A stretch of 36,566 bases of DNA from an uncultured Solibacteraceae bacterium. Lineage in GTDB: Bacteria > Acidobacteriota > Vicinamibacteria > Vicinamibacterales > SCN-69-37. The stretch is taken from NCBI GenBank assembly GCA_964548865.1, contig CAZJTG010000005.1, positions 1 through 36,566 of the forward strand, in the 5' to 3' direction. This document shows positions 8,495 to 31,483 of the stretch, in pieces. Numbering within the stretch: the first letter of the stretch is position 1; each line of letters opens with the position of its first letter. The translations under genes and the position numbers were made by a program. The notes under the pieces were generated by a model. The model was not told where the DNA came from, did no database searches, and worked only from the letters and a program-made list of their open reading frames with translations.

Positions 8495-10336
8495 TCAACC
8501 TTCCATCTTCACCGGTTTCACGAGGTGATGTTTCGCGACGTCCTGATAGGCCCTGGCGAGAGCGAGCAGTTCCATTTCGCCGAACGGCCGCGCGAAGAAC
8601 GTGACATTCGTCGGTGTGCCCGCCGCCGTGAATCCGTTCGGGACGTTCACGGCCGGATAGCACGCGAGATTTGCCATCGTTGAATGCCGCTGCGCGGGTC
8701 CGCCGCCACCGCCCGGCCCGCCTCGGCCACCGCCGGCGCGACCGGCGGCTGGATCGCCGCCGCGTGCCGTCGCGGCACCCGTCGCACCCGCAACGCCCGG
8801 CTCCGGTTCGCCGGCCCGTCCCCCGCGCCCTCCCGCCCCAGCGCCGGCGTTCGACGCGACGAGGTACACATCCACGTCCTTCGTCGCGGCCGCGAGCTCC
8901 GTCATCATCATCATGCGGAGGCGCTGCTGCTGCAGGTACTCGACGGCTGGCAGCAGCCTCGCCGTCGGCCGGTTGGCGTTACCCATGCGCGAGCCGGTGA
9001 GCTTGCCGGCGCGACGCATCTCGTCGAAGTACACGAACGACTCCACGCCCAGGCTGGCGACGTTGGTCTGCGAGTTCGGGATCTTCATCTCGATGAACTT
9101 CGAGATACCGAGATTGCGCAGCGTGTTCAGGAGGTTCTCCGCGTTCGTCTTCGCGTCGGCGTTCGTCAGTTCGTCGAACGACTCCTTGATGTAACCGACG
9201 CGCAGCTTGCGGATATCCAGCCGGGCGTCCCAGTTCCACGGGATGTCGGACACGCTCATGTCGCGGCCGTCGAGCTTCGAGATGGCCTGCATGACCAACG
9301 CGGCATCTTCGGCGTAGCGCACCATGGGACCAATGCGGTCCTGGGTCCACGACAGGGCCATGATGCCGTAACGTGACACGCGGCCGAACGTCGGCCTGAG
9401 CGATGCGATGCCGCAGCGCGCGGCGGGGCTGAGGATCGATCCGCTCGTCTCCGATCCGATCGCGAACGCCACGCAGCCGGCAGCGGTCGCCGACGATGAG
9501 CCGGCCGACGATCCGCTGGAGCCCTGCGCGGGATCCCAGGGGCTGTTCGTGCGGCCGCCGAACCACATGTCACCCGCGGCGAGCTCGCCGGTCGAGAGCT
9601 TCGCCACGAGCACCGCGCCGGCATCGCGCAACTGCTCGACGACGGACGCGTCGTAGTCGAACACCTGTCCTTTGAGCGCCGCGGTGCCCCAGGTCGTCGG
9701 ATAGCCCTTCACCGAGATGATGTCCTTCGCGCCCCATGGAATCCCGTGCAGCGGCCCCTTGTACCTGCCCGCCGCGATCTCGGTGTCCGCCTGCTTTGCC
9801 TGCGCCATCGCCAGGTCGTCGAGGAACGTGACCACGAAGTTCAGCTTCGGGTTGTACTTGTGGAGGCGGGCGAGATACATCCCGGTGAGCTCGCGCGACG
9901 TGACCTGCCGCGTGCGCACGAGCTCCGCGAGATGCCGCACCGGCCAGAACGCGACGTCCTCGAGGTTCGAGGGCCGTCTGATCGAGGGAGCGACGCTCAT
10001 GCGGAACGGCAGCCGCGTCCGGTTGGGCTCGATGCCCGGCGCGAGCGCGCTGAAATGGAACGGCGGCGAGACGTCGAGCGGAATCGATATCTTCCGGACC
10101 TCTTCGAACCGCGTCAGGTTCTGATTCGCGCCGGCCACCATCGCCTGGATGTCGGCGTCCGGTACCTCGACGCCCTGCAGTTTCAGCGCTTCCTTGAGCA
10201 TCGCGGCGGTCACGCGCTGGGTGCCCTGATCCTGCATGCGCGCCCAGACGACACCGGGCACGAGCGTGGATCCCAGCCCGATGCTGGCGAAGTGGGTCAT
10301 GAACCGTCTGCGCGTGTCTTCAAGCGAATGCGGCAT
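8495..10336 (-). CDS. Tat-exported amidase-signature (GatA-family) amidase with Gly/Arg-rich insertion
   Basis: Tat leader DTRRRFMTHFASIGLGSTLVPGVVWA. AS-family motifs: GIPWGAKD, the Gly/Ser-rich signature GSSGSSAGSSSATAAG, and GSETSGSILSPA. A 53-aa G/R/A/P insert (~8693..8851) lies before the C-terminal NVPNGF block. Confidence 0.85.
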   Translation of the reverse strand: MPHSLEDTRRRFMTHFASIGLGSTLVPGVVWARMQDQGTQRVTAAMLKEALKLQGVEVPDADIQAMVAGANQNLTRFEEVRKISIPLDVSPPFHFSALAPGIEPNRTRLPFRMSVAPSIRRPSNLEDVAFWPVRHLAELVRTRQVTSRELTGMYLARLHKYNPKLNFVVTFLDDLAMAQAKQADTEIAAGRYKGPLHGIPWGAKDIISVKGYPTTWGTAALKGQVFDYDASVVEQLRDAGAVLVAKLSTGELAAGDMWFGGRTNSPWDPAQGSSGSSAGSSSATAAGCVAFAIGSETSGSILSPAARCGIASLRPTFGRVSRYGIMALSWTQDRIGPMVRYAEDAALVMQAISKLDGRDMSVSDIPWNWDARLDIRKLRVGYIKESFDELTNADAKTNAENLLNTLRNLGISKFIEMKIPNSQTNVASLGVESFVYFDEMRRAGKLTGSRMGNANRPTARLLPAVEYLQQQRLRMMMMTELAAATKDVDVYLVASNAGAGAGGRGGRAGEPEPGVAGATGAATARGGDPAAGRAGGGRGGPGGGGGPAQRHSTMANLACYPAVNVPNGFTAAGTPTNVTFFARPFGEMELLALARAYQDVAKHHLVKPVKMEG

Positions 10337-22746: not shown

Positions 22747-23616
22747 ATGGCTCAGATTCGTGCATTCCGCAGGCCCTCGATTCAGACAGTGCTCGTCGCC
22801 GGGGGCGCCGCGCTGTTATCCGCGTCCATTGCCGTTCGAGCCGAGCAGGGTCCGCCCCAGGGCGGCGGCGCCCGCCCGCTCGTACCCATGACGGCCAGCA
22901 CCATCGTTCGCGATCCGGCCGCGCACCTGGGCATGAACGTGTCGATGACGGCGTCGGTTGATGCCATTCTGTCGAAGACGGTCTTCACCGTCGATCAGGA
23001 CAAGTCGAAATCAACCGGGCACGACGTGATCGTCATCGCGCCAACGCTGCAGGCCCCGCCGGAGCTGAACGCCTATCTCACCGTGCAGGGCGAGGTGTTC
23101 AGGTTCGATCCGGCAGAGATCGCGAAGCGGAATCGCGCCTACCAGCTCGATTTGTCGGCGGAGCTGATCGAGAAGTATCGCGGCAGGCCCGCGGTCATGG
23201 CCGCCGTCGTCGTGACGCCGGCGCTGATCGATCTGGCGAAGCGGCCGATCGCGCCGCCGACACCAGCCGAGATTGCGATGAGCGGCGCGATGAAGACGGT
23301 GAATTCGGCGATGGGCGTCGTGCGCGCCGGGCTCGAACAACCGGACGCCGCCCAACTCAAAGAGCAAGCCGCCGCGCTGAAGAAAGCGTTTGCGGAAACC
23401 GAGGCGATCTTCAAGGCACGCAACACCCCGACCGCCGTGGCCTGGGCGAGCGAGGCCCTGAAGCACGCCACCGCGATGGAAGTCGCGGTCGCCGCCGGCA
23501 AGTGGGATGACGTCAAGGCCGCCGCCAGCGGCATCCAGCCCCTCTGCGCGCAGTGCCACAACGAGCATCGCGAGCGGCTTGACGACGGATCGTACCGAAT
23601 CAGAAGCGGCGGCTAG
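22747..23616 (+). CDS. Exported protein: unknown N-terminal domain fused to a class-II (cytochrome c'/c556-like) four-helix haem domain
   Basis: Signal peptide (VLVAGGAALLSASIAVRAEQ). The Ala/Lys/Glu-rich helical C-terminal ~110 aa ends in a single CAQCH haem-c motif about 20 aa from the C-terminus, as in class II cytochromes c. The ATG at 22747 was chosen. Confidence 0.6.
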   Translation: MAQIRAFRRPSIQTVLVAGGAALLSASIAVRAEQGPPQGGGARPLVPMTASTIVRDPAAHLGMNVSMTASVDAILSKTVFTVDQDKSKSTGHDVIVIAPTLQAPPELNAYLTVQGEVFRFDPAEIAKRNRAYQLDLSAELIEKYRGRPAVMAAVVVTPALIDLAKRPIAPPTPAEIAMSGAMKTVNSAMGVVRAGLEQPDAAQLKEQAAALKKAFAETEAIFKARNTPTAVAWASEALKHATAMEVAVAAGKWDDVKAAASGIQPLCAQCHNEHRERLDDGSYRIRSGG

Positions 23617-23677
23617 GACAAACGACAAGAACGGCGCCGCCGGCCGGAACGACGCCAACGAGATTCTCGGAGCAGGC

Positions 23678-25468
23678 ATGCGACGAATTGCAATCGCGGT
23701 GATGTGTGCGTGTGCGCTGGCGCCAGCCCTGGCGCAGCGGCCCGCTGACGCCCCGAAGACGGCGCCCTCCGGCAAGCCTCCGGACACGGTCTTCATCGAG
23801 GAACTCACCTGGGCCGAAGTGCGGGATCTCGTCAAGGACGGCTGGACGACCGCCATCATCGGCACCGCGGGCACGGAACAGAAGGGCCCGCACATGGTGG
23901 ACGGCGAGCACAAGTTCGTCATGGAGTACGCCGCCGACAAGATCGCCCGCCGCGTCGGCAAGACGCTCGTCGCACCGGTCATTACTTACGTGCCGGAGGG
24001 CAGCTGGGTGAATCCTGGCGGGCACATGGGCAAGCCCGGGACGATCACGCTGCCCGACGATCGATTTCTCGAACTCCTTCTGGCGGCCGGCCGCAGCCTG
24101 AAATCAGGCGGCTTCACGACGATCCTGTTCCTCGGCGAATCGGGCGGCAATCGCACCGGGATGCGCAACGCCGCGACGCAGCTGACTGAGCTGTGGAAGG
24201 GTGAGGCGAAGGCGTTCTGGATCGACGATTACTACACGAAGAGCCACGCCGATCAGAACGCGCACATCACGAAGACGATGGGGATTCCGGCGAGCGAGAT
24301 CGGCGGGCACGCCAACCTGCTCGACACGTCGGAGCTGTTGTTCGTCAACCCGAAGCACGTGCGCAAGAACAAGATCGCGCCGGGCGGCGGGTATCCGAAC
24401 AGCGGAGTCAGCGGAGATCCGACGAGATCCTCCGCGGCGCTCGGCAAGGTGTTTCTCCAGATCAAGATCGACAACGCCGTGGCGCAGATCGGGGCGCTCA
24501 CGTCAGGTACGTCGGGTACGGCGAGTGCCGCGAGCGCGGGCGAGGCCAGGCGCGGCGGCGCCGCCGCCGCGGGTGGTCGAGGTGGGCAGGCCGGAGGACG
24601 CGGGCAAGGGGGAGGGCGTGGCGTACAGCCGGGAGGACGCGGAGCAGAGAGCACGGCGGCATCCGCCGTCCCGAGACCCACAATGGAGACGGCGCCCGCG
24701 GGCATTTCGCCGACGAACCCGCCGGACACGGTGTTCATCGACGAGCTCACGTGGGAAGAGACGCGCGATCGGATGAAAGCGGGCTGGACGACCGCCGTCA
24801 TTCCGACCGGCGGCACGGAGAAGAACGGGTACCACATGGCGCTCGGCAAGCACAACGCCATCGTCACCCACGCGGCCAACCTGATGGCGCGGCGCCTGAG
24901 GAACACGCTTGTGGCGCCCGTGATTCAGTACGTGCCCGAGGGCAATCCCGAGCGTCAGAATCCAGGCGCGATCTCCCTGCCCTCGCCGGCCTACGACCTG
25001 CTGCTCGACGCCGCGGCGCGCAGCCTGCAGGCGCACGGCTTCAAAGAGATCATCTTCATCGGCGACAGCGGCGGCAATCAGGCCGGCATGCGGAACGTGG
25101 CGAACGTTCTGAACGAAGAGTGGAAGGGCCGCGACGTCAGGGTCTTCGCGCTGACCGACTACTACGAACAGGGCCGGCTGCACTACCGCGCGTGGCTCGA
25201 GGCCGCGTTCGGCTACGACGACACGATCGTCGGATCGCACGCGGGGATCAGCGACACGTCGCAGCTCCTGCACGTGAAGCCGTCCATGGTGCGGAAGAAC
25301 CAGGTCAAGCCGTGGGGCGGCCCGACGGACTCCGGGGTCTCAGGCGATCCGACGAAGGCCACGGCCGAAATCGGCCGCATGGGCATCGAGTTCAAGATCA
25401 ACGCCGCGCTCGCGCAGTACCGGGCGCTGAAGAATCCCAGGGGCGGACGGGGCGGCGGCGGACAGTAG
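23678..25468 (+). CDS. Secreted tandem-duplicated creatininase-fold (creatinine amidohydrolase family) protein
   Basis: Signal peptide MRRIAIAVMCACALAPALAQ. Two homologous modules start PPDTVFIEELTWAEVRD...GTAGTEQKGPHM...LVAPVITYVPEG...FLGESGGN and PPDTVFIDELTWEETRD...PTGGTEKNGYHM...LVAPVIQYVPEG...FIGDSGGN. They are joined by a Gly/Arg-rich linker. Confidence 0.7.
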   Translation: MRRIAIAVMCACALAPALAQRPADAPKTAPSGKPPDTVFIEELTWAEVRDLVKDGWTTAIIGTAGTEQKGPHMVDGEHKFVMEYAADKIARRVGKTLVAPVITYVPEGSWVNPGGHMGKPGTITLPDDRFLELLLAAGRSLKSGGFTTILFLGESGGNRTGMRNAATQLTELWKGEAKAFWIDDYYTKSHADQNAHITKTMGIPASEIGGHANLLDTSELLFVNPKHVRKNKIAPGGGYPNSGVSGDPTRSSAALGKVFLQIKIDNAVAQIGALTSGTSGTASAASAGEARRGGAAAAGGRGGQAGGRGQGGGRGVQPGGRGAESTAASAVPRPTMETAPAGISPTNPPDTVFIDELTWEETRDRMKAGWTTAVIPTGGTEKNGYHMALGKHNAIVTHAANLMARRLRNTLVAPVIQYVPEGNPERQNPGAISLPSPAYDLLLDAAARSLQAHGFKEIIFIGDSGGNQAGMRNVANVLNEEWKGRDVRVFALTDYYEQGRLHYRAWLEAAFGYDDTIVGSHAGISDTSQLLHVKPSMVRKNQVKPWGGPTDSGVSGDPTKATAEIGRMGIEFKINAALAQYRALKNPRGGRGGGGQ

Positions 25469-25492
25469 TGTCCGGTGTCCAGGTGTCGGCGT

Positions 25493-27028
25493 TCAGTACT
25501 TCTTCCACGTAAACGAGCTCATCATGAACGCGCCGCCCACCATGAAGTCGTTCTGGAGGCGGCGGTCGTAATGGAAGTGCGTTCCACCGCTCTCACTGAC
25601 GGACTTGCCGACAACTGATCCATAGATGTGCGATCCGCCGGTCATGTTGACCGGCGCGTTCGGCGCGTAGATCATGACCGCCGTGTTGGTGCCGCCGCTC
25701 ACGCTGACGGCCGACGTGCCGCCGTAGAGGATCTGGAAATGCGTCGGGTCGAACGTCGGGTTCGAGATGGAGTTGCCGGCGAAGCTGATGGGCTGGTTGG
25801 TGCCCACCCCGGCAACATTCATGTACACAGGGCCGGTTTCGATGATGACCTGGGCGTTGCCGTTCACGGTAATGTTGTTCAGGTTGTACACACCGGCCCT
25901 CAGGCGGATCGTGGCGCCGGCGTTCAGGGTCACGTTGCCGAACGTCAGGGTTCCGCCCAGTGGATCGAGCGTCAGATTCCCCGCGCTGCCGCTGCAGGTC
26001 GTGCCAGCGAGGCCGAGCTGGGCGCACGTCGAGGTTGCCCAGCTCACATTGGTTGTGGGCGGCATCGGGTTCGGCGGCGCCGGCGTCGGGTATTGAATCG
26101 CCTGCGGCAGCTGGATCAGGCCCTCGCTCACTTTCGCAAGGCCGCCTGTCAGGGCGGTGACCGTCCCGTTCTTGCAATTGCCGACGCCCGTGCGCGGCGT
26201 CGAAAGCGATCCATAGATCTGTGTCGAGCCGCCGTTGACGGTCAGGTTGCCGTTGGAGCCGACGGCGCCGCCCGAGAGCTGGACCTGTGGCGCGCCGTTC
26301 ACCATCGTCATGTTCGATGAATCGTAGCTGTCGCTTGTGGACCCGCCGCTGAAGGTGAGGGCGCCGCAGCCGGCGGCGGTCGCGAACACGCCGAAGCTGT
26401 GCGCCGACGACACCTGCCGCTCGAGGATGCTCGTAACCTCGACCGCGGCGGGCCGCGTACCGCCGAGCGACCCGGTGCCGACGAGATGCCACGTCTGGAT
26501 CACCCTGGGCGCCGCGGCACCGTACTCCTGAATCGTGCGCATCGACAGCAGGGTGGCGTAAGCGTTGTACGCGACCGTCTGACCAGCGTTCAGCGTGCCC
26601 TGAACCGCCGCGCTGAACGCCGTTTGGGCGGCCGCGTACGGGTAGTTCGACGCCTTGTTCGGGTCCGCCGAGAGGACCACGGGGTTGCCGTTGTAGGTCA
26701 CCGGCGACACGTTCATGTTGTAGTTGCTCAGAGGATCGCCGGCGAGACCAGGCGCCTGATACGTCTGCGTGAGGTAGTTGACGGCGCGAAGCACGCCGGC
26801 CTCCGCGCCGTACCGCGCCTGCGACATCATCCGGTAGTTCATGCTGGCGTATGTTTCCGTATTGGACAGCATGAGCAAGCTTGCGCCGATCGCGGAGAGC
26901 GCGACCGCGAGAAGCAGCACGACAACGATCGCGACACCGGCGTCGTTCGGCAGACGGCGGGACACGGCGTCCGGAGTGGCCGGGAGATCGCGGCGGATCG
27001 AATCAGACGTCGTCATGGTCGTCCTCAT
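25493..27028 (-). CDS. PilX_N-domain pilus assembly protein with large Gly/Asn/Thr-rich C-terminal domain
   Basis: The ATG at 27028 forms an ATGA overlap with the upstream stop. Hydrophobic helix GVAIVVVLLLAVALSAIGASLLMLSNTE followed by QARYGAEAGV (PilX N-terminal signature). About 400 aa of repetitive beta-rich sequence ends in SFTWKKY. Confidence 0.7.
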   Translation of the reverse strand: MRTTMTTSDSIRRDLPATPDAVSRRLPNDAGVAIVVVLLLAVALSAIGASLLMLSNTETYASMNYRMMSQARYGAEAGVLRAVNYLTQTYQAPGLAGDPLSNYNMNVSPVTYNGNPVVLSADPNKASNYPYAAAQTAFSAAVQGTLNAGQTVAYNAYATLLSMRTIQEYGAAAPRVIQTWHLVGTGSLGGTRPAAVEVTSILERQVSSAHSFGVFATAAGCGALTFSGGSTSDSYDSSNMTMVNGAPQVQLSGGAVGSNGNLTVNGGSTQIYGSLSTPRTGVGNCKNGTVTALTGGLAKVSEGLIQLPQAIQYPTPAPPNPMPPTTNVSWATSTCAQLGLAGTTCSGSAGNLTLDPLGGTLTFGNVTLNAGATIRLRAGVYNLNNITVNGNAQVIIETGPVYMNVAGVGTNQPISFAGNSISNPTFDPTHFQILYGGTSAVSVSGGTNTAVMIYAPNAPVNMTGGSHIYGSVVGKSVSESGGTHFHYDRRLQNDFMVGGAFMMSSFTWKKY

Positions 27029-27978
27029 GGCAGGAGTGCCTGAACGCTCGGCGGCATGGGCTGCTGGCGATTCGTGATGCCGATGCTGGCCATGCTCCAA
27101 ATCAGGAAGATGTTCCGGGGGGAGACGTTCAGGAGGGTCTTCGTCGCCTGCTGAGTCGCCTTCGAGAAATGATCCTGCTGCTGCGAGTGCACGCTGAGCG
27201 TCACGGCGACGCCCGTCACGTACGTCGTACCCAGCACAACCTCGGTCTGATACGTGAAGCAGGGCGAGTTCCCGGGGTTCGGGATCACGTTGTTCAGGAT
27301 GACCATCGATGCCGTCTTTACCGGCTTCGAGGCCGCATTCCACGGCATGACGTTCCGGTAGAGGTGCCCGGCCGCCGTGTCGCACGTGTATTCGACGTAC
27401 AGCATCTGGCCGTCATCGTTGATGTCGCCGTAGAGCTTCAACACCGATCCAGTCGATCCGTTCGCCATTGACGGCGGCACGACACCGGAGGGAAACCCCC
27501 CGAGAATCATCAGCGGCTCGCCCGCGTAGTGCGCCAGGCCGAAAACGCCACTGAACGACGTACCTGTCAGCGCCGTGATGGCCACCGTTTCGGTCTGGTC
27601 TCCAGCGCCAAGCACGACCTGCGCGCCGACGAAGAGTCCTGTCGTGGTGTTCACCGAGATCGTACCGGCGCCCTTCAGCACCGACCCGGTCGTCGTGATC
27701 GCGCCCGGCAGGGCGACGCGGCCCGCCTGACCGATCTCCTGCTGCATCAACTCCGTGGCGCCGCGGACCGACCCGTGCATCTCGGCGCGGTTGCCGACGA
27801 CTTTGCTGAGAATGACGGTCTGGTTCAGCCCGTTGGTCGCGGCAGTGAAGAGGATCAGCAGCACGGACACGGCAATGAGCGCCTCGACCAGTGAGAAGCC
27901 GGACTGGGACGAGCCGGGTGCGGAGTGCCGTGTGCCAGGTGCCGGGTGCGGTGTACGCGGTGCCGAGTGTGGATGCAT
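27025..27978 (-). CDS. Prepilin-type N-terminal cleavage/methylation protein, PilW-like minor pilin
   Basis: G|FSLVEALIAVSVLLILF class-III signal with Glu at +5. 27-aa leader. Position in the fimT-pilV-pilW-pilX gene order. Confidence 0.7.
   Translation of the reverse strand: MHPHSAPRTPHPAPGTRHSAPGSSQSGFSLVEALIAVSVLLILFTAATNGLNQTVILSKVVGNRAEMHGSVRGATELMQQEIGQAGRVALPGAITTTGSVLKGAGTISVNTTTGLFVGAQVVLGAGDQTETVAITALTGTSFSGVFGLAHYAGEPLMILGGFPSGVVPPSMANGSTGSVLKLYGDINDDGQMLYVEYTCDTAAGHLYRNVMPWNAASKPVKTASMVILNNVIPNPGNSPCFTYQTEVVLGTTYVTGVAVTLSVHSQQQDHFSKATQQATKTLLNVSPRNIFLIWSMASIGITNRQQPMPPSVQALLP
27912..27974 (-). repeat. Degenerate heptanucleotide tandem tract, 9 units (TGCCGNG on the + strand) inside the PilW-like leader-coding region
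   Basis: AGCCGGG TGCGGAG TGCCGTG TGCCAGG TGCCGGG TGCGGTG TACGCGG TGCCGAG TGTGGAT. It translates on the minus strand to the 7-aa periodic HSAPRTP HPAPGTR HSAPGSS. Confidence 0.7.
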
Positions 27979-27990
27979 GACGACTTTCTC

Positions 27991-28566
27991 TCAGAACGGG
28001 AAGCTCTTGAGCGAGACCAGCGTAGCGGTCGGCCTCTGTCGCCTGCCGATACTGCGCGCGACGGTTGCCGTCACCCGAACTTCCTTCAACGTTGCCGAGA
28101 TTGCGGTCACCTGCCAGACGCGCTGGTAGAACCACCCCGCCGGCGGGGTTGCCGAGTTACTCACGAGCAGGTTGCCCCCGGCGTCAAGGTAGTCGGCGTA
28201 CCCGACCACCGGCGCCGCAGGGTTCGCGCTTCCGCCGGCTGCGATGCCCGTGCCGCCGATGGCGGTTGCGGGAAAGACTCGCGTGTCCGACGAGTCGTCG
28301 CCGAACGACAGCACCAGGAGCTGCTCCATCTTGTCCTGCGCGTACTCGGCCGTGCGCGCGGCAAGGTGGCCCTGGTTTTCCGACTGCGTCAGCGAAATCG
28401 CGGCCATCGCGAGCAGGCCGGATGCGAGCGTGCCCATGATGACCACGGCCACGATCACTTCCACCAGCGTGGATCCTGAATCGGTACGGGGTGCCTGGTG
28501 CCGGGTGCCGAGTACCGGGCGCCGGCTGTCGGGTGCCTGCAGGCTACGGTCAGGGGAGGTGCTCAT
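27991..28566 (-). CDS. Prepilin-type protein, PilV-like minor pilin
   Basis: G|STLVEVIVAVVIMGTLASGLL with Glu at +5 but Ser rather than Phe at +1. PilV-type continuation (AISLTQSENQG...AEYAQDKMEQL). 31-aa leader. ATG at 28566. Confidence 0.65.
   Translation of the reverse strand: MSTSPDRSLQAPDSRRPVLGTRHQAPRTDSGSTLVEVIVAVVIMGTLASGLLAMAAISLTQSENQGHLAARTAEYAQDKMEQLLVLSFGDDSSDTRVFPATAIGGTGIAAGGSANPAAPVVGYADYLDAGGNLLVSNSATPPAGWFYQRVWQVTAISATLKEVRVTATVARSIGRRQRPTATLVSLKSFPF
28484..28539 (-). repeat. Degenerate heptanucleotide tandem tract, 8 units (GTGCCGG on the + strand) inside the PilV-like leader-coding region
   Basis: GTACGGG GTGCCTG GTGCCGG GTGCCGA GTACCGG GCGCCGG CTGTCGG GTGCCTG. On the coding strand it shares the core GCACCCGGCACC[A/T]GGCAC with the tract at 27912..27974. 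Confidence 0.7.
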
Positions 28567-28580
28567 CGTCACATGACCTC

Positions 28581-29210
28581 CTAGTTGAGGGCCCACGATC
28601 CGCCGCCGGTGAGATTCGAACGCCACAACTGGATCATGCCGCCCGTCGTTGTCGTGACGGCGAAGACCGTCGCCCCGTCCCCGAGGTAGTAGGCGCCGGT
28701 CGGCGTCGGAGCGTTCGTGCTGTCGATGGGCACGCCGCGTGAGTTGAAGATGATGCAGGCCGTACCGGCGATAGGCTGGTTGGCGGCATTGAGACAGACC
28801 GCCGCCTGGCCGATCACCGGCTGCGTGTTGGGTGGCGGGGTCGTCACGCCAGAGAAACCGAACGACACGTTGGGTGAGAGCTGCTTGACCACGCCCTCGG
28901 CCACCCACCCAGCCGGGTTCTTTCGCCAGCGCTCGACATAGTACGTGTTGGTGCCGAGCACCACGACGACGCGCGCCTTTGTGAAGCTCGCGGCGGCGCG
29001 CATCTTCGCCAGTGACACCGAACTCAGTACGTTGCGCGCATCGCTGGTCAGGTTCATCGCGTTCAGCGCCCCGCGCGTGAACGGCAGGATGAACGCCGCG
29101 ACCGTCACCATCACCGCCATGAACGCGATGAGTTCGACCAGCGAGAAGCCGGGCGAAGACGAACGCAGAACGGTCGCAACGGGGGAGGCTGAGACGTTTC
29201 GGGTGGTCAT
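28581..29210 (-). CDS. Prepilin-type protein, GspH/FimT-like minor pilin
   Basis: G|FSLVELIAFMAVMVTVAAFILPF class-III signal followed by the GspH-like block (NLTSDARNVLSSVSLAKMRA). ATG at 29210; the track start at 29282 is a TTG. Confidence 0.7.
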   Translation of the reverse strand: MTTRNVSASPVATVLRSSSPGFSLVELIAFMAVMVTVAAFILPFTRGALNAMNLTSDARNVLSSVSLAKMRAAASFTKARVVVVLGTNTYYVERWRKNPAGWVAEGVVKQLSPNVSFGFSGVTTPPPNTQPVIGQAAVCLNAANQPIAGTACIIFNSRGVPIDSTNAPTPTGAYYLGDGATVFAVTTTTGGMIQLWRSNLTGGGSWALN

Positions 29211-29256
29211 GTGATCCAGGTCGCACCGGGAACCCCGGGCGCGACGCGCAGGAATG

Positions 29257-29272
29257 AGCAAGGACCGTACCT
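29257..29272 (-). promoter_or_regulatory. Candidate sigma54 (-24/-12) promoter for the minor-pilin operon
   Basis: The minus strand reads AGGTACGGTCCTTGCT, against the consensus TGGCACG-N4-TTGCW. The GG and TTGC elements have exact spacing, with one core mismatch (C to T). It lies ~47 nt upstream of the fimT-like ATG. Confidence 0.4.
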
Positions 29273-29375
29273 CAGGGGGCAAGGCCAGCTCGCCCGTAAC
29301 CTCCTCTATTTGCTTGGCTTAGCGGGACTCCAGGTCATCCACCAAAACTGTGGGCCTGGCGTGGGTGGGTACTTC

Positions 29376-29391
29376 TGTAACGGCCGTTACA
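29376..29391. promoter_or_regulatory. 16-bp perfect palindrome TGTAACGGCCGTTACA, candidate activator (UAS) site
   Basis: Perfect dyad centred ~113 bp upstream of the -24 GG of the sigma54-like element, the usual distance range for bEBP binding sites. Confidence 0.3.
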
Positions 29392-29417
29392 ACAACGGGC
29401 CGTCGTTCGCCTGAGCC

Positions 29418-29450
29418 AAAAAAAGGGGCGGCCCGCTTGCTGGCCGCCCC
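29418..29450 (-). terminator. Rho-independent terminator downstream of the ankyrin gene
   Basis: The minus strand reads GGGGCGGCC-agcaagcg-GGCCGCCCC followed by TTTTTTT. This gives a 9-bp GC stem, an 8-nt loop and a 7-U tail, starting 33 nt after the stop at 29483. Confidence 0.75.
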
Positions 29451-29482
29451 GGATCGAGCCACGCTCGCGCCCTGAACGGCGC

Positions 29483-31483
29483 CTACGGCGCGCAACTGGC
29501 GCAACGGTTGTTATTGGTCGCTCCAAGCTTCACGAGCAGATCGCGCGCTTCAGGGAACGGTGAGATTCGCGAGACCGGCCCGTTGGCCATGTCGGCGGTC
29601 GACTGGCCGCGCCGGCTGACGGCTTTCACGTCCGCGCCCTTCGACACGAGGTAATTGATCATCTCGACGTCTCCACGCGCGGCCGCGTGGTGAAGCGGCG
29701 TGTAGCCGCCGTCGTCGCGTGAGTTGACGTCGATGCCGATCTCCTCGATTAGGTATTTCACCGCGGCCAGCCACGCCTCGGGGGCGTGACGATGGGCATT
29801 GCCGGCGAAGCCTTCGCCGTACTCGGCGCCGGCGGCGGCATGCAGCGGATTGACGCCTGGTCCGCCCGCCGGAACCGGCGGCAGGCCCGACGGATCGACC
29901 CGCGGCCCTGCCGGAGCCGCCGCGGGTGTGCCGCCGTCTGGGCCGCCCGCGCCGCCACGCCCTCCGGCTGCTCCGGCACCGAAGCCACGGCCACCTGCCG
30001 CACCTCCGCGCCCGGCGCCGCTGGTCATCGTGGGGATATTGGGATCGGCGCCGTATTTGACGAGCAGGCGCATCGCGTCGACGTCAGTGCCGTATGCGGC
30101 GCGCCAGAACGCCGTGGAGCCTGTCACGTTCGCCAGGCCGCAGTTCGCGTTGCCGCAGTCGCTGTAGACCATGTACCAGGGATGGCCCTTCACCCGCACG
30201 TCGGGATCCGCGCCGGCTTCGAGCAGCGCCTTCATGACGTCGAGGTATGTGGCCTTCTGGTAGTCCATTTCCTGCGGCTGGGGGAATCGCGTGCGCGGCT
30301 GCCACCGCGTGTTGACGGCGGCCCAGAGCGGCGTGATCCCGTAGCCATCGCCGGCGAGGTTGACCTTGGCGCCTTTCTCGATGAACTGCATGGCGATGTC
30401 GAACTGTCCGTTGACGAGCGCGACGAGGAGCGGCGTGTTGCCGTCCGCCGACTTCCGGTTGATGTCCGCGCCGGCGTCGAGGAGCAGCGTGACGGCCTGT
30501 GCGTGTCCGTCGCGCGCGGCGAAGTGGAGCGGCGTCATGCCGCCCTTGGCCGTGCCGGACACCGCGGGGCCATCGACGCTCAGAGGATCCTGCACCACCA
30601 GTCCGGTGCCGTCGGCCGCAGGCGTGCCGCCGCGCCCGGCGAATTGTCCGCGTCCACCGCCGGCCGCGCCCGCAGGGGAGGCGGCAGCCGCCACGGCGGG
30701 ATCCGGAGCGCCGCCGCGCCCGACCGCAGGGGCCGCGCCCGGGGGAGGCGGCAGCTTGCCCGTCGCGTAGAACTCGCGGGTCGCCGCGACGGCGGCCTGC
30801 TGGGCCGCGGCCGTCGGCGTTTGTCCGGGCGGCGTTGCCGCCGCGATGATCTGCCGGCGCAGCGTCGCGCCCTGACGGTCGATGGCCTGCTGCTGCGAGA
30901 TGTTGATCGGCGTGGACGCCAGGTCGACCGCCGCGCCCCGGGCGATCAGCGCCTTCATGGCGGCGACGTGTCCGCCGGTCACGGCGAAAACGAGCGGCGA
31001 CTGGCCGTTGACCGTGTCGCGCGCATTCACGTCCGCGCCGCCGTCGACGAGCGCGGTCACGGCCGCGGCGTTGCCGCCGCCCGCCGCCAGGTGAATCGCC
31101 GAGGCGCCGCTGGCGGTCGTGGTGTTCACGTCCGCGCCCGCCTTGACGAGTGCGGTCACGACATCGGCGGCGCCATTCCTGGCCGCGAGGTGGAGCGGCG
31201 TGTACTGGCCGAGCCGAGTCTCGGCGGCGAGGTTGGCGCCGGCCCGAATCAACACGTCGGCCATCGTCGCGTCGCCGCGCTCCGCCGCCCAGTGCAGCGG
31301 TGTCATGCCGTCGGCGTGCGGCGCGCTCGCGTCGGCGCCCTGCTTCACGAGGCTGCGAACCGAAGCGACGTCACCCTTCCTCGCGGCGTCGGCGACAGGC
31401 GTCGCGGCCTGCTCTGTGAACGCGACGGTGACCGACGCCAGCACGAACGTCGCGGCCAGACCTAACCCAAGTGCACGTGTCAT
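29483..31483 (-). CDS. Secreted ankyrin-repeat protein with Gly/Arg-rich inserts
   Basis: Signal peptide MTRALGLGLAATFVLASVTVAFT. Many ANK units (G.TPLH.AA..G....V..Ll..GAdvN). Two low-complexity inserts lie at ~29860..30030 and ~30610..30760. An alternative ATG at 31516 would overlap the DUF1552 stop by 8 nt; 31483 has the better AGGGGA Shine-Dalgarno. Confidence 0.8.
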   Translation of the reverse strand: MTRALGLGLAATFVLASVTVAFTEQAATPVADAARKGDVASVRSLVKQGADASAPHADGMTPLHWAAERGDATMADVLIRAGANLAAETRLGQYTPLHLAARNGAADVVTALVKAGADVNTTTASGASAIHLAAGGGNAAAVTALVDGGADVNARDTVNGQSPLVFAVTGGHVAAMKALIARGAAVDLASTPINISQQQAIDRQGATLRRQIIAAATPPGQTPTAAAQQAAVAATREFYATGKLPPPPGAAPAVGRGGAPDPAVAAAASPAGAAGGGRGQFAGRGGTPAADGTGLVVQDPLSVDGPAVSGTAKGGMTPLHFAARDGHAQAVTLLLDAGADINRKSADGNTPLLVALVNGQFDIAMQFIEKGAKVNLAGDGYGITPLWAAVNTRWQPRTRFPQPQEMDYQKATYLDVMKALLEAGADPDVRVKGHPWYMVYSDCGNANCGLANVTGSTAFWRAAYGTDVDAMRLLVKYGADPNIPTMTSGAGRGGAAGGRGFGAGAAGGRGGAGGPDGGTPAAAPAGPRVDPSGLPPVPAGGPGVNPLHAAAGAEYGEGFAGNAHRHAPEAWLAAVKYLIEEIGIDVNSRDDGGYTPLHHAAARGDVEMINYLVSKGADVKAVSRRGQSTADMANGPVSRISPFPEARDLLVKLGATNNNRCASCAP

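Follow-up and report, generated by a model that had tools for sequence, protein, structure and literature searches.

Two adjacent genes in the minor-pilin operon of an uncultured Solibacteraceae bacterium (Acidobacteriota), a pilV-like and a pilW-like gene, carry tandem arrays of a degenerate 7-nucleotide (nt) unit in the segments that code for their prepilin leader peptides. The operon lies on contig CAZJTG010000005.1, of which we analysed the whole stretch from position 1 to 36,566 of the forward strand (hereafter the window), together with related loci and homologous proteins. The arrays are probably coding microsatellites born of replication slippage, which are tolerated in the cleaved leaders and result in leader-length polymorphism. 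They probably do not act as an efficient ON/OFF switch.

On the coding strand, the units of the pilW-like array read CACTCGG CACCGCG TACACCG CACCCGG CACCTGG CACACGG CACTCCG CACCCGG CTCGTCC, and those of the pilV-like array CACCCGA CAGCCGG CGCCCGG TACTCGG CACCCGG CACCAGG CACCCCG TACCGAT (Table 1). Both arrays have the same unit in the same phase, CAC-NNN-G, with the consensus CACCCGG. Three consensus units in a row, CAC CCG GCA CCC GGC ACC CGG, encode H-P-A-P-G-T-R, the middle heptad of the window PilW leader. An earlier, sequence-only reading of the window had quoted nine units at 27912-27974 and eight at 28484-28539, and both are present in the sequence as quoted. As it had proposed, both tracts fall between the start codon and the prepilin cleavage glycine, inside the leader-coding segments, and the shared coding-strand core that it gave, GCACCCGGCACC[T/A]GGCAC, as well as the 7-amino-acid (aa) periodicity of the leader peptides, is correct for both genes. 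It was also right in describing a third pseudopilin gene as free of the repeat: the FimT-like leader, which reads MTTRNVSASPVATVLRSSSPG and then FSLVE, has no array, and the PilX-like leader likewise has none. No alternative in-frame ATG, GTG or TTG occurs between the start codon and the cleavage glycine of the pilV- or the pilW-like gene, and the tracts must therefore be translated.

Tandem Repeats Finder reported period-7 arrays at 27913-27949 (5.3 copies, 76% matches) and 28489-28537 (7.0 copies, 71%), gave periods of 14, 21 and 28 over both tracts as well, and found no other period-7 array above 2.6 copies in the window. By sliding autocorrelation at periods of 1-30, the tracts were the top two period-7 places of the entire 36.6 kilobases (kb; z ∼6). 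Their period-7 autocorrelation, calculated over 56 nt at a time, was 0.67 and 0.69, compared with 0.53 at the best other place in the window, and 0 of 200 dinucleotide-preserving shuffles reached 0.67. Similarly, the motif GCACNNNGCACNNNGCAC (GCAC-N3-GCAC-N3-GCAC, at most one mismatch) had nine matches, all of them in the two tracts, where 0.75 were expected for the search. Autocorrelation at 7 and 14 was as strong as that at 21, which identifies 7 nt as the primary unit and rules out a peptide repeat with a primary period of 21 nt. The longest perfect period-7 stretches in the window measure 12 nt (pilW) and 14 nt (pilV), that is, at most two perfect units. Across 354 kb of the window and related loci, period-7 arrays outside the pilV and pilW leaders were few and short (in L001, in an intergenic region of L007 and in L049).

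The comparison with orthologues that the sequence-only reading had proposed revealed that the number of pilW units differs among relatives: six in L007, L010 and L073 (protein P0241), nine in the window and 12 in L072. L007 is a syntenic relative whose PilW shares 81% aa identity with that of the window, and its units read CACTCGG CACTCCG CACCCGG CACTCCG CACGGGG ATCGTCG. L008, L009 and L011 carry the same allele; it was identical in three assemblies, which may stem from related samples. For L073 (ERZ1761212), the pilW DNA is partial and the protein leader reads MTKHSALRTSHSARGSSEAG, while the 12-unit array of L072 includes 35 nt of perfect period-14 repeat. The differences in length between the alleles are exactly 21 and 42 nt, with conserved flanks, and the PilW leaders of the array-bearing clade measure 20, 24, 27 and 38 aa. 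The 21 nt by which the window allele exceeds the 6-unit alleles likely correspond to the three most consensus-like units of its array, their placement within the repeat being ambiguous. The mature-pilW DNA of the window, L007 and L010 is mutually ∼79% identical. At this ∼21% DNA divergence, L007 and L010 both retain six units, and their tracts are 80% identical. Equal length combined with this degree of identity indicates that the tract changes mostly through point substitutions and keeps pace with the gene. No period of 7 was detected in pilW of the next clade (76% aa identity; L077, L078), and among ∼160 prepilin leaders from relatives it was restricted to the small clade of the window.

The sequence-only reading had seen in the arrays the classical architecture of slipped-strand phase variation. 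Its reasoning on the reading frame was sound: in simulations, gain or loss of one unit caused a frameshift in each gene, with products of 34-190 aa to the first stop, and steps of three units lengthen or shorten the leader in frame, as seen in the 21- and 42-nt differences between pilW alleles. Switching itself was not supported by the comparison. All five pilW alleles and all three pilV alleles with a heptamer-type leader (one of them, P0126, known from the protein) are in frame, no other length steps were seen, and six units were kept across the ∼21% divergence described above. Frameshifted (OFF) alleles were not found among the alleles compared, and the truncated-looking homologs that we checked had intact leaders. 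As in contingency loci, the unit is not a triplet and lies in the 5′ coding region of both genes. Near-identical units in runs long enough for frequent slippage are lacking in the window, however, and although unit number varies, no out-of-frame allele is part of that variation. The caveat that degenerate units might slip slowly was well placed, since arrays interrupted so often that no more than two units in a row are perfect should show slow slippage at present.

Two of the truncated-looking homologs, P0074 (L074 2417-2500) and P0208 (L076 2443-2500), have annotated starts inside the transmembrane helix. Their DNA contains intact upstream leaders, one of the true starts being a GTG, so that both are start-codon miscalls, and we rejected them as frameshifted OFF alleles. 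Further homologs in the PilW and PilV sets probably carry the same miscall. A PilV-like gene in L058 (∼1200-1310), which is a more distant homolog without a heptamer array, has no in-frame ATG, GTG or TTG between the upstream stop and the cleavage site and has a GTG in another frame; this gene may be frameshifted or may use an unusual start.

In pilV, no array is present in the closest syntenic relative, L007, whose leader, MQKKNATMDPRRSNDDAG, is encoded by non-repetitive DNA. L073 pilV has a different heptamer array, CACGGCT ×3 (perfect) followed by TACGGCT ×2 (near-perfect), which appears to be young; this array and the 12-unit pilW array of L072 would be the likeliest to slip. A third PilV, P0126, has a heptad-like leader, MDRTQPALRTPHRALRTDEG. 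We infer that the window pilV array was acquired specifically in this lineage, with the pilW array, at a distance of 570 nt, as its probable source. The pilV unit agrees with the stretch of the window's pilW array that is closest to the consensus, which makes copying between the two leaders likely.

Ungapped alignments of the window pilV and pilW tracts were all in the same heptamer phase, and the best ones were out of reading frame (30/37 and 28/34, against 26/34 for the best in-frame alignment). Furthermore, alanines on the G/CA skeleton use GCA in 13/13 cases across alleles, a codon that accounts for 6% of the Ala codons in the window genes. Out-of-frame best alignments and the uniform use of a rare codon together mark the repeat as one of DNA and not of a conserved peptide. 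The sequence-only reading had pointed out that orthologues might encode the same leader peptide by non-repetitive DNA; this was not the case. The pilW tracts of L007 (10022-10063) and L010 (192-233) differ at seven positions, all of which are unit positions 4-6 and none of which is in the G-CAC skeleton. By hand count, third codon positions had changed at 0/6 sites in the skeleton versus 4/5 in the spacer (Fisher p ∼0.015, small sample). This contrast might stem from homogenisation within the array, from hypermutable CCGG/CCWGG spacers, or from DNA- or RNA-level selection. We also predicted RNA folding. The pilW 5′ region folded worse than its shuffles (z = +2.5 over 101 nt; z = +1.9 for the tract alone), the pilV tract folded about as well as its shuffles (z about 0), and the antisense strand of the pilV tract folded somewhat better (z = −2.1). 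A stable mRNA structure in the tracts was ruled out, as pilW is below and pilV at shuffle level, and no Rfam family matched within 25000-30000 at E ≤ 1.

Overall, no other part of these genes changes nearly as much as the segments that code for the leaders. Leader lengths among homologs range from 6 to 41 aa for PilW and from 8 to 45 aa for PilV, with 16-18 aa being the commonest length in the overall range of 6-45. For type IVa pilins and type II secretion pseudopilins, leaders of ∼5-10 aa are usual; those in the window are longer, with 21, 31, 27 and ∼31 aa for the FimT-, PilV-, PilW- and PilX-like proteins, respectively. L007 and L072 are 91-93% identical over the fimT 3′ end, pilV and the start of pilW. 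The ∼65 nt between the fimT stop and the pilV cleavage site (L072 164-228), which hold the pilV ribosome-binding region and leader, could nevertheless not be aligned between them, and their pilW arrays differ by 42 nt. The break points at the fimT stop codon and the pilV cleavage site thus delimit a hypervariable leader segment, and a four-way alignment returned the same segment flanked by conserved sequence. As expected of in-frame variable coding repeats, the flanks are 77-93% identical and the leaders are variable in length or unalignable. Other leaders contain peptide repeats: a 12-aa AGLPAVA... repeat in PilW homologs (two copies in P0070, three in P0245) and an 11-aa SQAGCRxPRR repeat in the PilV homolog P0125 (two copies). 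Compared with size-matched mature segments, leaders were modestly enriched in peptide tandem repeats (7/176 vs 4/175 at a score ≥0.6; 5 vs 0 at ≥0.7). PilW and PilV leaders keep a net positive charge.

These observations can be assembled into a mechanism for the reading that we favour, of slippage-born microsatellites tolerated in cleaved leaders. Replication slippage or unequal exchange would create the arrays and alter their length. Of these alterations, only those by three units (7 codons) or a multiple would persist, because no other step of a 7-nt unit preserves the reading frame and the cells would need the minor pilins. In type IV pilin biogenesis, the prepilin leader lies on the cytoplasmic side and is removed by the prepilin peptidase. 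It is for this reason that the arrays would be tolerated, since such a leader would need little more than a hydrophilic or basic character and a terminal Gly. All three frames of the unit are free of stop codons, and the H-P-A-P-G-T-R peptide is hydrophilic and basic and would be harmless as leader sequence. The net effect would be a polymorphism in leader length that leaves the mature pilin unchanged.

Several points weigh against this reading. Non-triplet repeat units in coding DNA are normally selected against. The G-CAC skeleton is kept even at synonymous sites while the spacer varies, and pure neutral decay does not predict such a contrast. CAC-based heptamers are found in two adjacent genes, and those of pilV differ in unit between at least two lineages; their recurrence would also be expected of a selected contingency locus. 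The sample of five pilW and three pilV alleles is small, and consensus assemblies would hide minority OFF variants.

We therefore weighed the reading of slippage-born, tolerated microsatellites against four others. It seems unlikely to us that the arrays are kept because slipped-strand mispairing turns the PilV- or PilW-like pilin, and with it pilus priming or the pilus tip, OFF and ON. The non-triplet unit at the 5′ end of two adjacent genes and the early frameshift products expected of ±7 nt would suit such a contingency locus, and so would unit numbers of 6, 9 and 12 among relatives, but every length step is 21 or 42 nt and 8/8 alleles are in frame (P0126 judged by the protein), whereas about two-thirds of the genomes with neuO, which together with opa provides the precedent (see below), are out of frame. 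Relatives do have nearly perfect young arrays (L073 pilV, L072 pilW); those of the window contain at most two perfect units, and the 6-unit allele stayed unchanged across ∼21% divergence. Heptamer arrays have arisen independently in pilV leaders, as this explanation would have it, yet the array is missing from the nearest relative's pilV and from the rest of the family. Minority variants may be concealed in consensus assemblies, but the candidate truncated alleles turned out to be artefacts. We would give equally little credence to a broader version, in which CAC-based heptamers have been recruited recurrently as contingency loci that switch pilus-priming or tip pilins in soil populations, the 6-, 9- and 12-unit alleles are the ON states captured by consensus assemblies, and G-CAC is kept by selection for slippage.

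Another explanation, also with a low probability, is that GCAC every 7 nt after the start codon is itself selected as a DNA- or RNA-level element. It could provide an unstructured C/A-rich stretch that opens the initiation region in a 67% G+C genome, or a regulator-binding platform for minor-pilin translation. The skeleton that is invariant at synonymous sites between variable spacers and the constant use of the rare GCA codon are in line with this, but hypermutable CCGG/CCWGG spacers or array homogenisation could produce the same contrast. Folding is reduced in the pilW 5′ region and its tract, as an opened initiation region would predict, but not in the pilV tract. One unit type is shared by two genes of one operon; the pilV of L073, however, has a different unit, and Rfam gave no match. 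Because the array is missing from the closest relative's pilV and from nearly all orthologs, such an element cannot be required. The alternative offered by the sequence-only reading, a signal common to both genes, is likewise not supported as an obligatory one, given that the closest syntenic relative's pilV and the next clade's pilW lack the repeat. We consider it quite improbable that selection acts on the heptad leader (H-x-A-P-x-T-x) at the peptide level, for instance by way of prepilin peptidase recognition or cleavage or of membrane insertion. By hand count, 4/7 of the L007-L010 tract differences are synonymous, a hint of constraint, and the leaders retain their positive charge, but ortholog leaders of 6-45 aa cannot be aligned, the window tracts align best with each other, as DNA, in an out-of-frame register, and the rare codons show that it is the DNA repeat that is copied and not the peptide. 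Finally, a chance pattern or an assembly artefact can be practically dismissed. Nothing but the degeneracy of the units suggests it, no shuffle reached the observed score, the tracts are no longer than 68 nt, and independent assemblies of other samples contain the array as well (L007/L008/L009 with one allele, L010, L072 and L073).

The four genes of the operon, in the order H/T-like, V-like, W-like and X/K-like, correspond to the minor-pilin set FimT/PilV/PilW/PilX, and the order fimT-pilV-pilW-pilX is shared with L074, L076 and the syntenic L007. The prepilin N-methylation motif is present in the FimT-, PilV- and PilW-like genes, and PilX_N and DUF7305 in the fourth. The cleavage/methylation motifs of the three pilin-like genes, SG↓FSLVE, SG↓STLVE and PG↓FSLVE, conform to the type IV pilin pattern of an N-terminal G↓(F/S)xxxE with a hydrophobic helix. 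The Pfam N_methyl match of the FimT-like gene is under the family cut-off (E = 0.011), as is a weak TIGR02523 PilV match of the PilV-like protein; the NCBIfam matches to PilV, XpsH and GspK are all weak and under the cut-offs. The ATG of the pilX-like gene overlaps the pilW stop (ATGA). We retrieved 1489 PilW-like homologs, mostly from Vicinamibacteria/Acidobacteriota, and 1689 PilV-like homologs. Together with a syntenic 574-kb contig, homologs assign the window to the Vicinamibacterales (Acidobacteriota). A look-up returned no exact protein record for the window PilW, and a collection of species-representative genomes contained distant relatives only (≤68% identity).

Table 1. Heptanucleotide arrays, leader-coding segments and minor-pilin genes of the window
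Feature	Position	Strand	Details
Heptanucleotide array, pilW-like leader	27907..27974	−	Nine units, coding strand
Heptanucleotide array, pilV-like leader	28480..28539	−	Eight units, coding strand
pilW-like leader-coding segment	27898..27978	−	27 codons, MHPHSAPRTPHPAPGTRHSAPGSSQSG, then FSLVEAL
pilV-like leader-coding segment	28474..28566	−	31 codons, MSTSPDRSLQAPDSRRPVLGTRHQAPRTDSG, then STLVEV
Most consensus-like pilW units, CACCCGG CACCTGG CACACGG	27928..27948	−	Encode HPAPGTR
FimT/GspH-like pseudopilin gene	28581..29210	−	209 aa; first gene of the operon; 21-aa leader
PilV-like minor pilin gene	27991..28566	−	191 aa; Pfam N_methyl E = 3.9e-5
PilW-like minor pilin gene	27025..27978	−	317 aa; Pfam N_methyl E = 6.8e-6
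PilX/GspK-like gene with DUF7305	25493..27028	−	511 aa; PilX_N and DUF7305 matches

Upstream of the pilin operon are an ankyrin-repeat gene and a DUF1552 gene. A sigma-54-type −24/−12 element, GGTACGGTCCTTGCT (GG-N10-GC), is located at 29257..29271 on the minus strand, ∼45 nt upstream of the FimT-like start, and an element of this type is found at the same place in L006, L007, L039, L050 and L074. This positional conservation across relatives suggests that the minor-pilin operon is probably sigma-54 dependent. The element is part of the context and separate from the repeat. A sigma-54 promoter within the tract, which contains TGGCAC, was rejected, as there is no TTGC at the needed spacing. Shortly after the ankyrin gene, a G+C-rich hairpin is followed by T7 (GGGGCGGCCAGCAAGCGGGCCGCCCCTTTTTTT; 29418-29450, minus strand), also in L007; it likely represents an intrinsic terminator that parts the ankyrin gene from the pilin operon. 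L007 has an intergenic (GGGTTCA) ×4.3 array (8579-8608) between the ankyrin stop codon and the terminator, which the window lacks. On the other side of the operon, a 653-aa protein encoded at 23507-25468 on the plus strand has two creatininase (PF02633) matches separated by a Gly/Arg-rich linker, GGRGGQAGGRGQGGGRG. Synteny with L007 stops at this double-creatininase gene.

If the arrays are tolerated coding repeats, as we favour, they offer a clean natural example of a cleaved signal segment that absorbs slippage-derived DNA. The extent of what such a segment can accept is illustrated by the 6-45 aa spanned by orthologous minor-pilin leaders and by the outright replacement of a leader between genomes that are otherwise 91-93% identical. 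There is also a warning for annotation, in that homologs that seemingly start inside the transmembrane helix had intact leaders wherever we checked. More generally, a 5′ heptanucleotide repeat alone is no evidence of phase variation; degeneracy of the units, frame of the alleles and stability across divergence must be checked. To our knowledge, repeat-mediated phase variation is known almost only from host-associated bacteria. Should the arrays be a true switch after all, it would be extended to soil Acidobacteriota and to prepilin leaders. The minor pilins of type IV pili would then undergo simple-sequence phase variation in a phylum that is free-living and non-pathogenic, through repeats placed in a class III signal peptide.

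In a limited literature search, we found no prior description of such repeats in prepilin leaders, and no paper on acidobacterial minor pilins matched all search terms together. Among the known systems, Neisseria pilC has a poly-G tract in the region that codes for its signal peptide, whose role as an ON/OFF switch is proven; PilC does not belong to the prepilin-type proteins. As in pilC, whose tract is slippage-prone, the repeats described here are located in the 5′ signal-coding region of a pilus-associated gene, but they consist of a 7-nt unit instead of a homopolymer and belong to prepilin-type proteins.

A closer match in unit length is neuO, which encodes the K1 capsule O-acetyltransferase of the E. 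coli CUS-3 prophage and has heptanucleotide AAGACTC repeats in its 5′ coding region (PMC13001214). These repeats are perfect and number 3-53 units, with 65.6% of 64 complete genomes out of frame, and they vary both between near-identical strains and within cultures, in which 93% had 21 repeats and the rest 20 or 22 (PMC13001214). The two systems share a 7-nt tandem unit at the 5′ end of the reading frame that allows a full-length product only if the count is divisible by three. In both, three units add 7 amino acids, so that in-frame (ON) alleles differ by heptads. Unlike those of neuO, the units studied here are degenerate and come in numbers of 6-12, always in frame and stable over ∼21% DNA divergence. 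They are also situated in a cleaved leader, whereas the neuO repeats are part of the mature enzyme. In this latter respect the arrays resemble Neisseria opa, where perfect CTCTT pentanucleotide coding repeats in the leader-peptide region switch at ∼1e-3 per cell per generation (PMC3960869). In both cases, a non-triplet repeat occupies codons of a cleaved N-terminal signal, where an in-frame change in length spares the mature protein. The leader is of the prepilin type (class III) here, compared with a Sec signal peptide in opa, and switching has been measured for opa, whereas the window arrays are known from sequence alone. In Haemophilus influenzae, heptanucleotide repeats occur in the hmw1A/hmw2A promoters and, as AACAACC, in TonB-dependent receptor genes (PMC2651432). 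Like the window arrays, they are heptanucleotide tandems linked to surface-protein genes and vary in unit number between strains; unlike them, they are mostly upstream of the gene, perfect and present in 13-38 copies, and those in coding regions show frameshifted alleles.

With ordinary variable coding repeats, the pilV and pilW arrays have in common a copy number that differs between conserved flanks, exclusively in-frame variants and a location in a weakly constrained segment. The units of ordinary coding repeats are usually divisible by three, whereas with a unit of 7 nt only triple steps are viable. Given that the two hallmarks of a contingency locus that are missing here are near-perfect units and natural out-of-frame alleles, the arrays fit best into the class of coding tandem repeats that vary in copy number within a weakly constrained segment.

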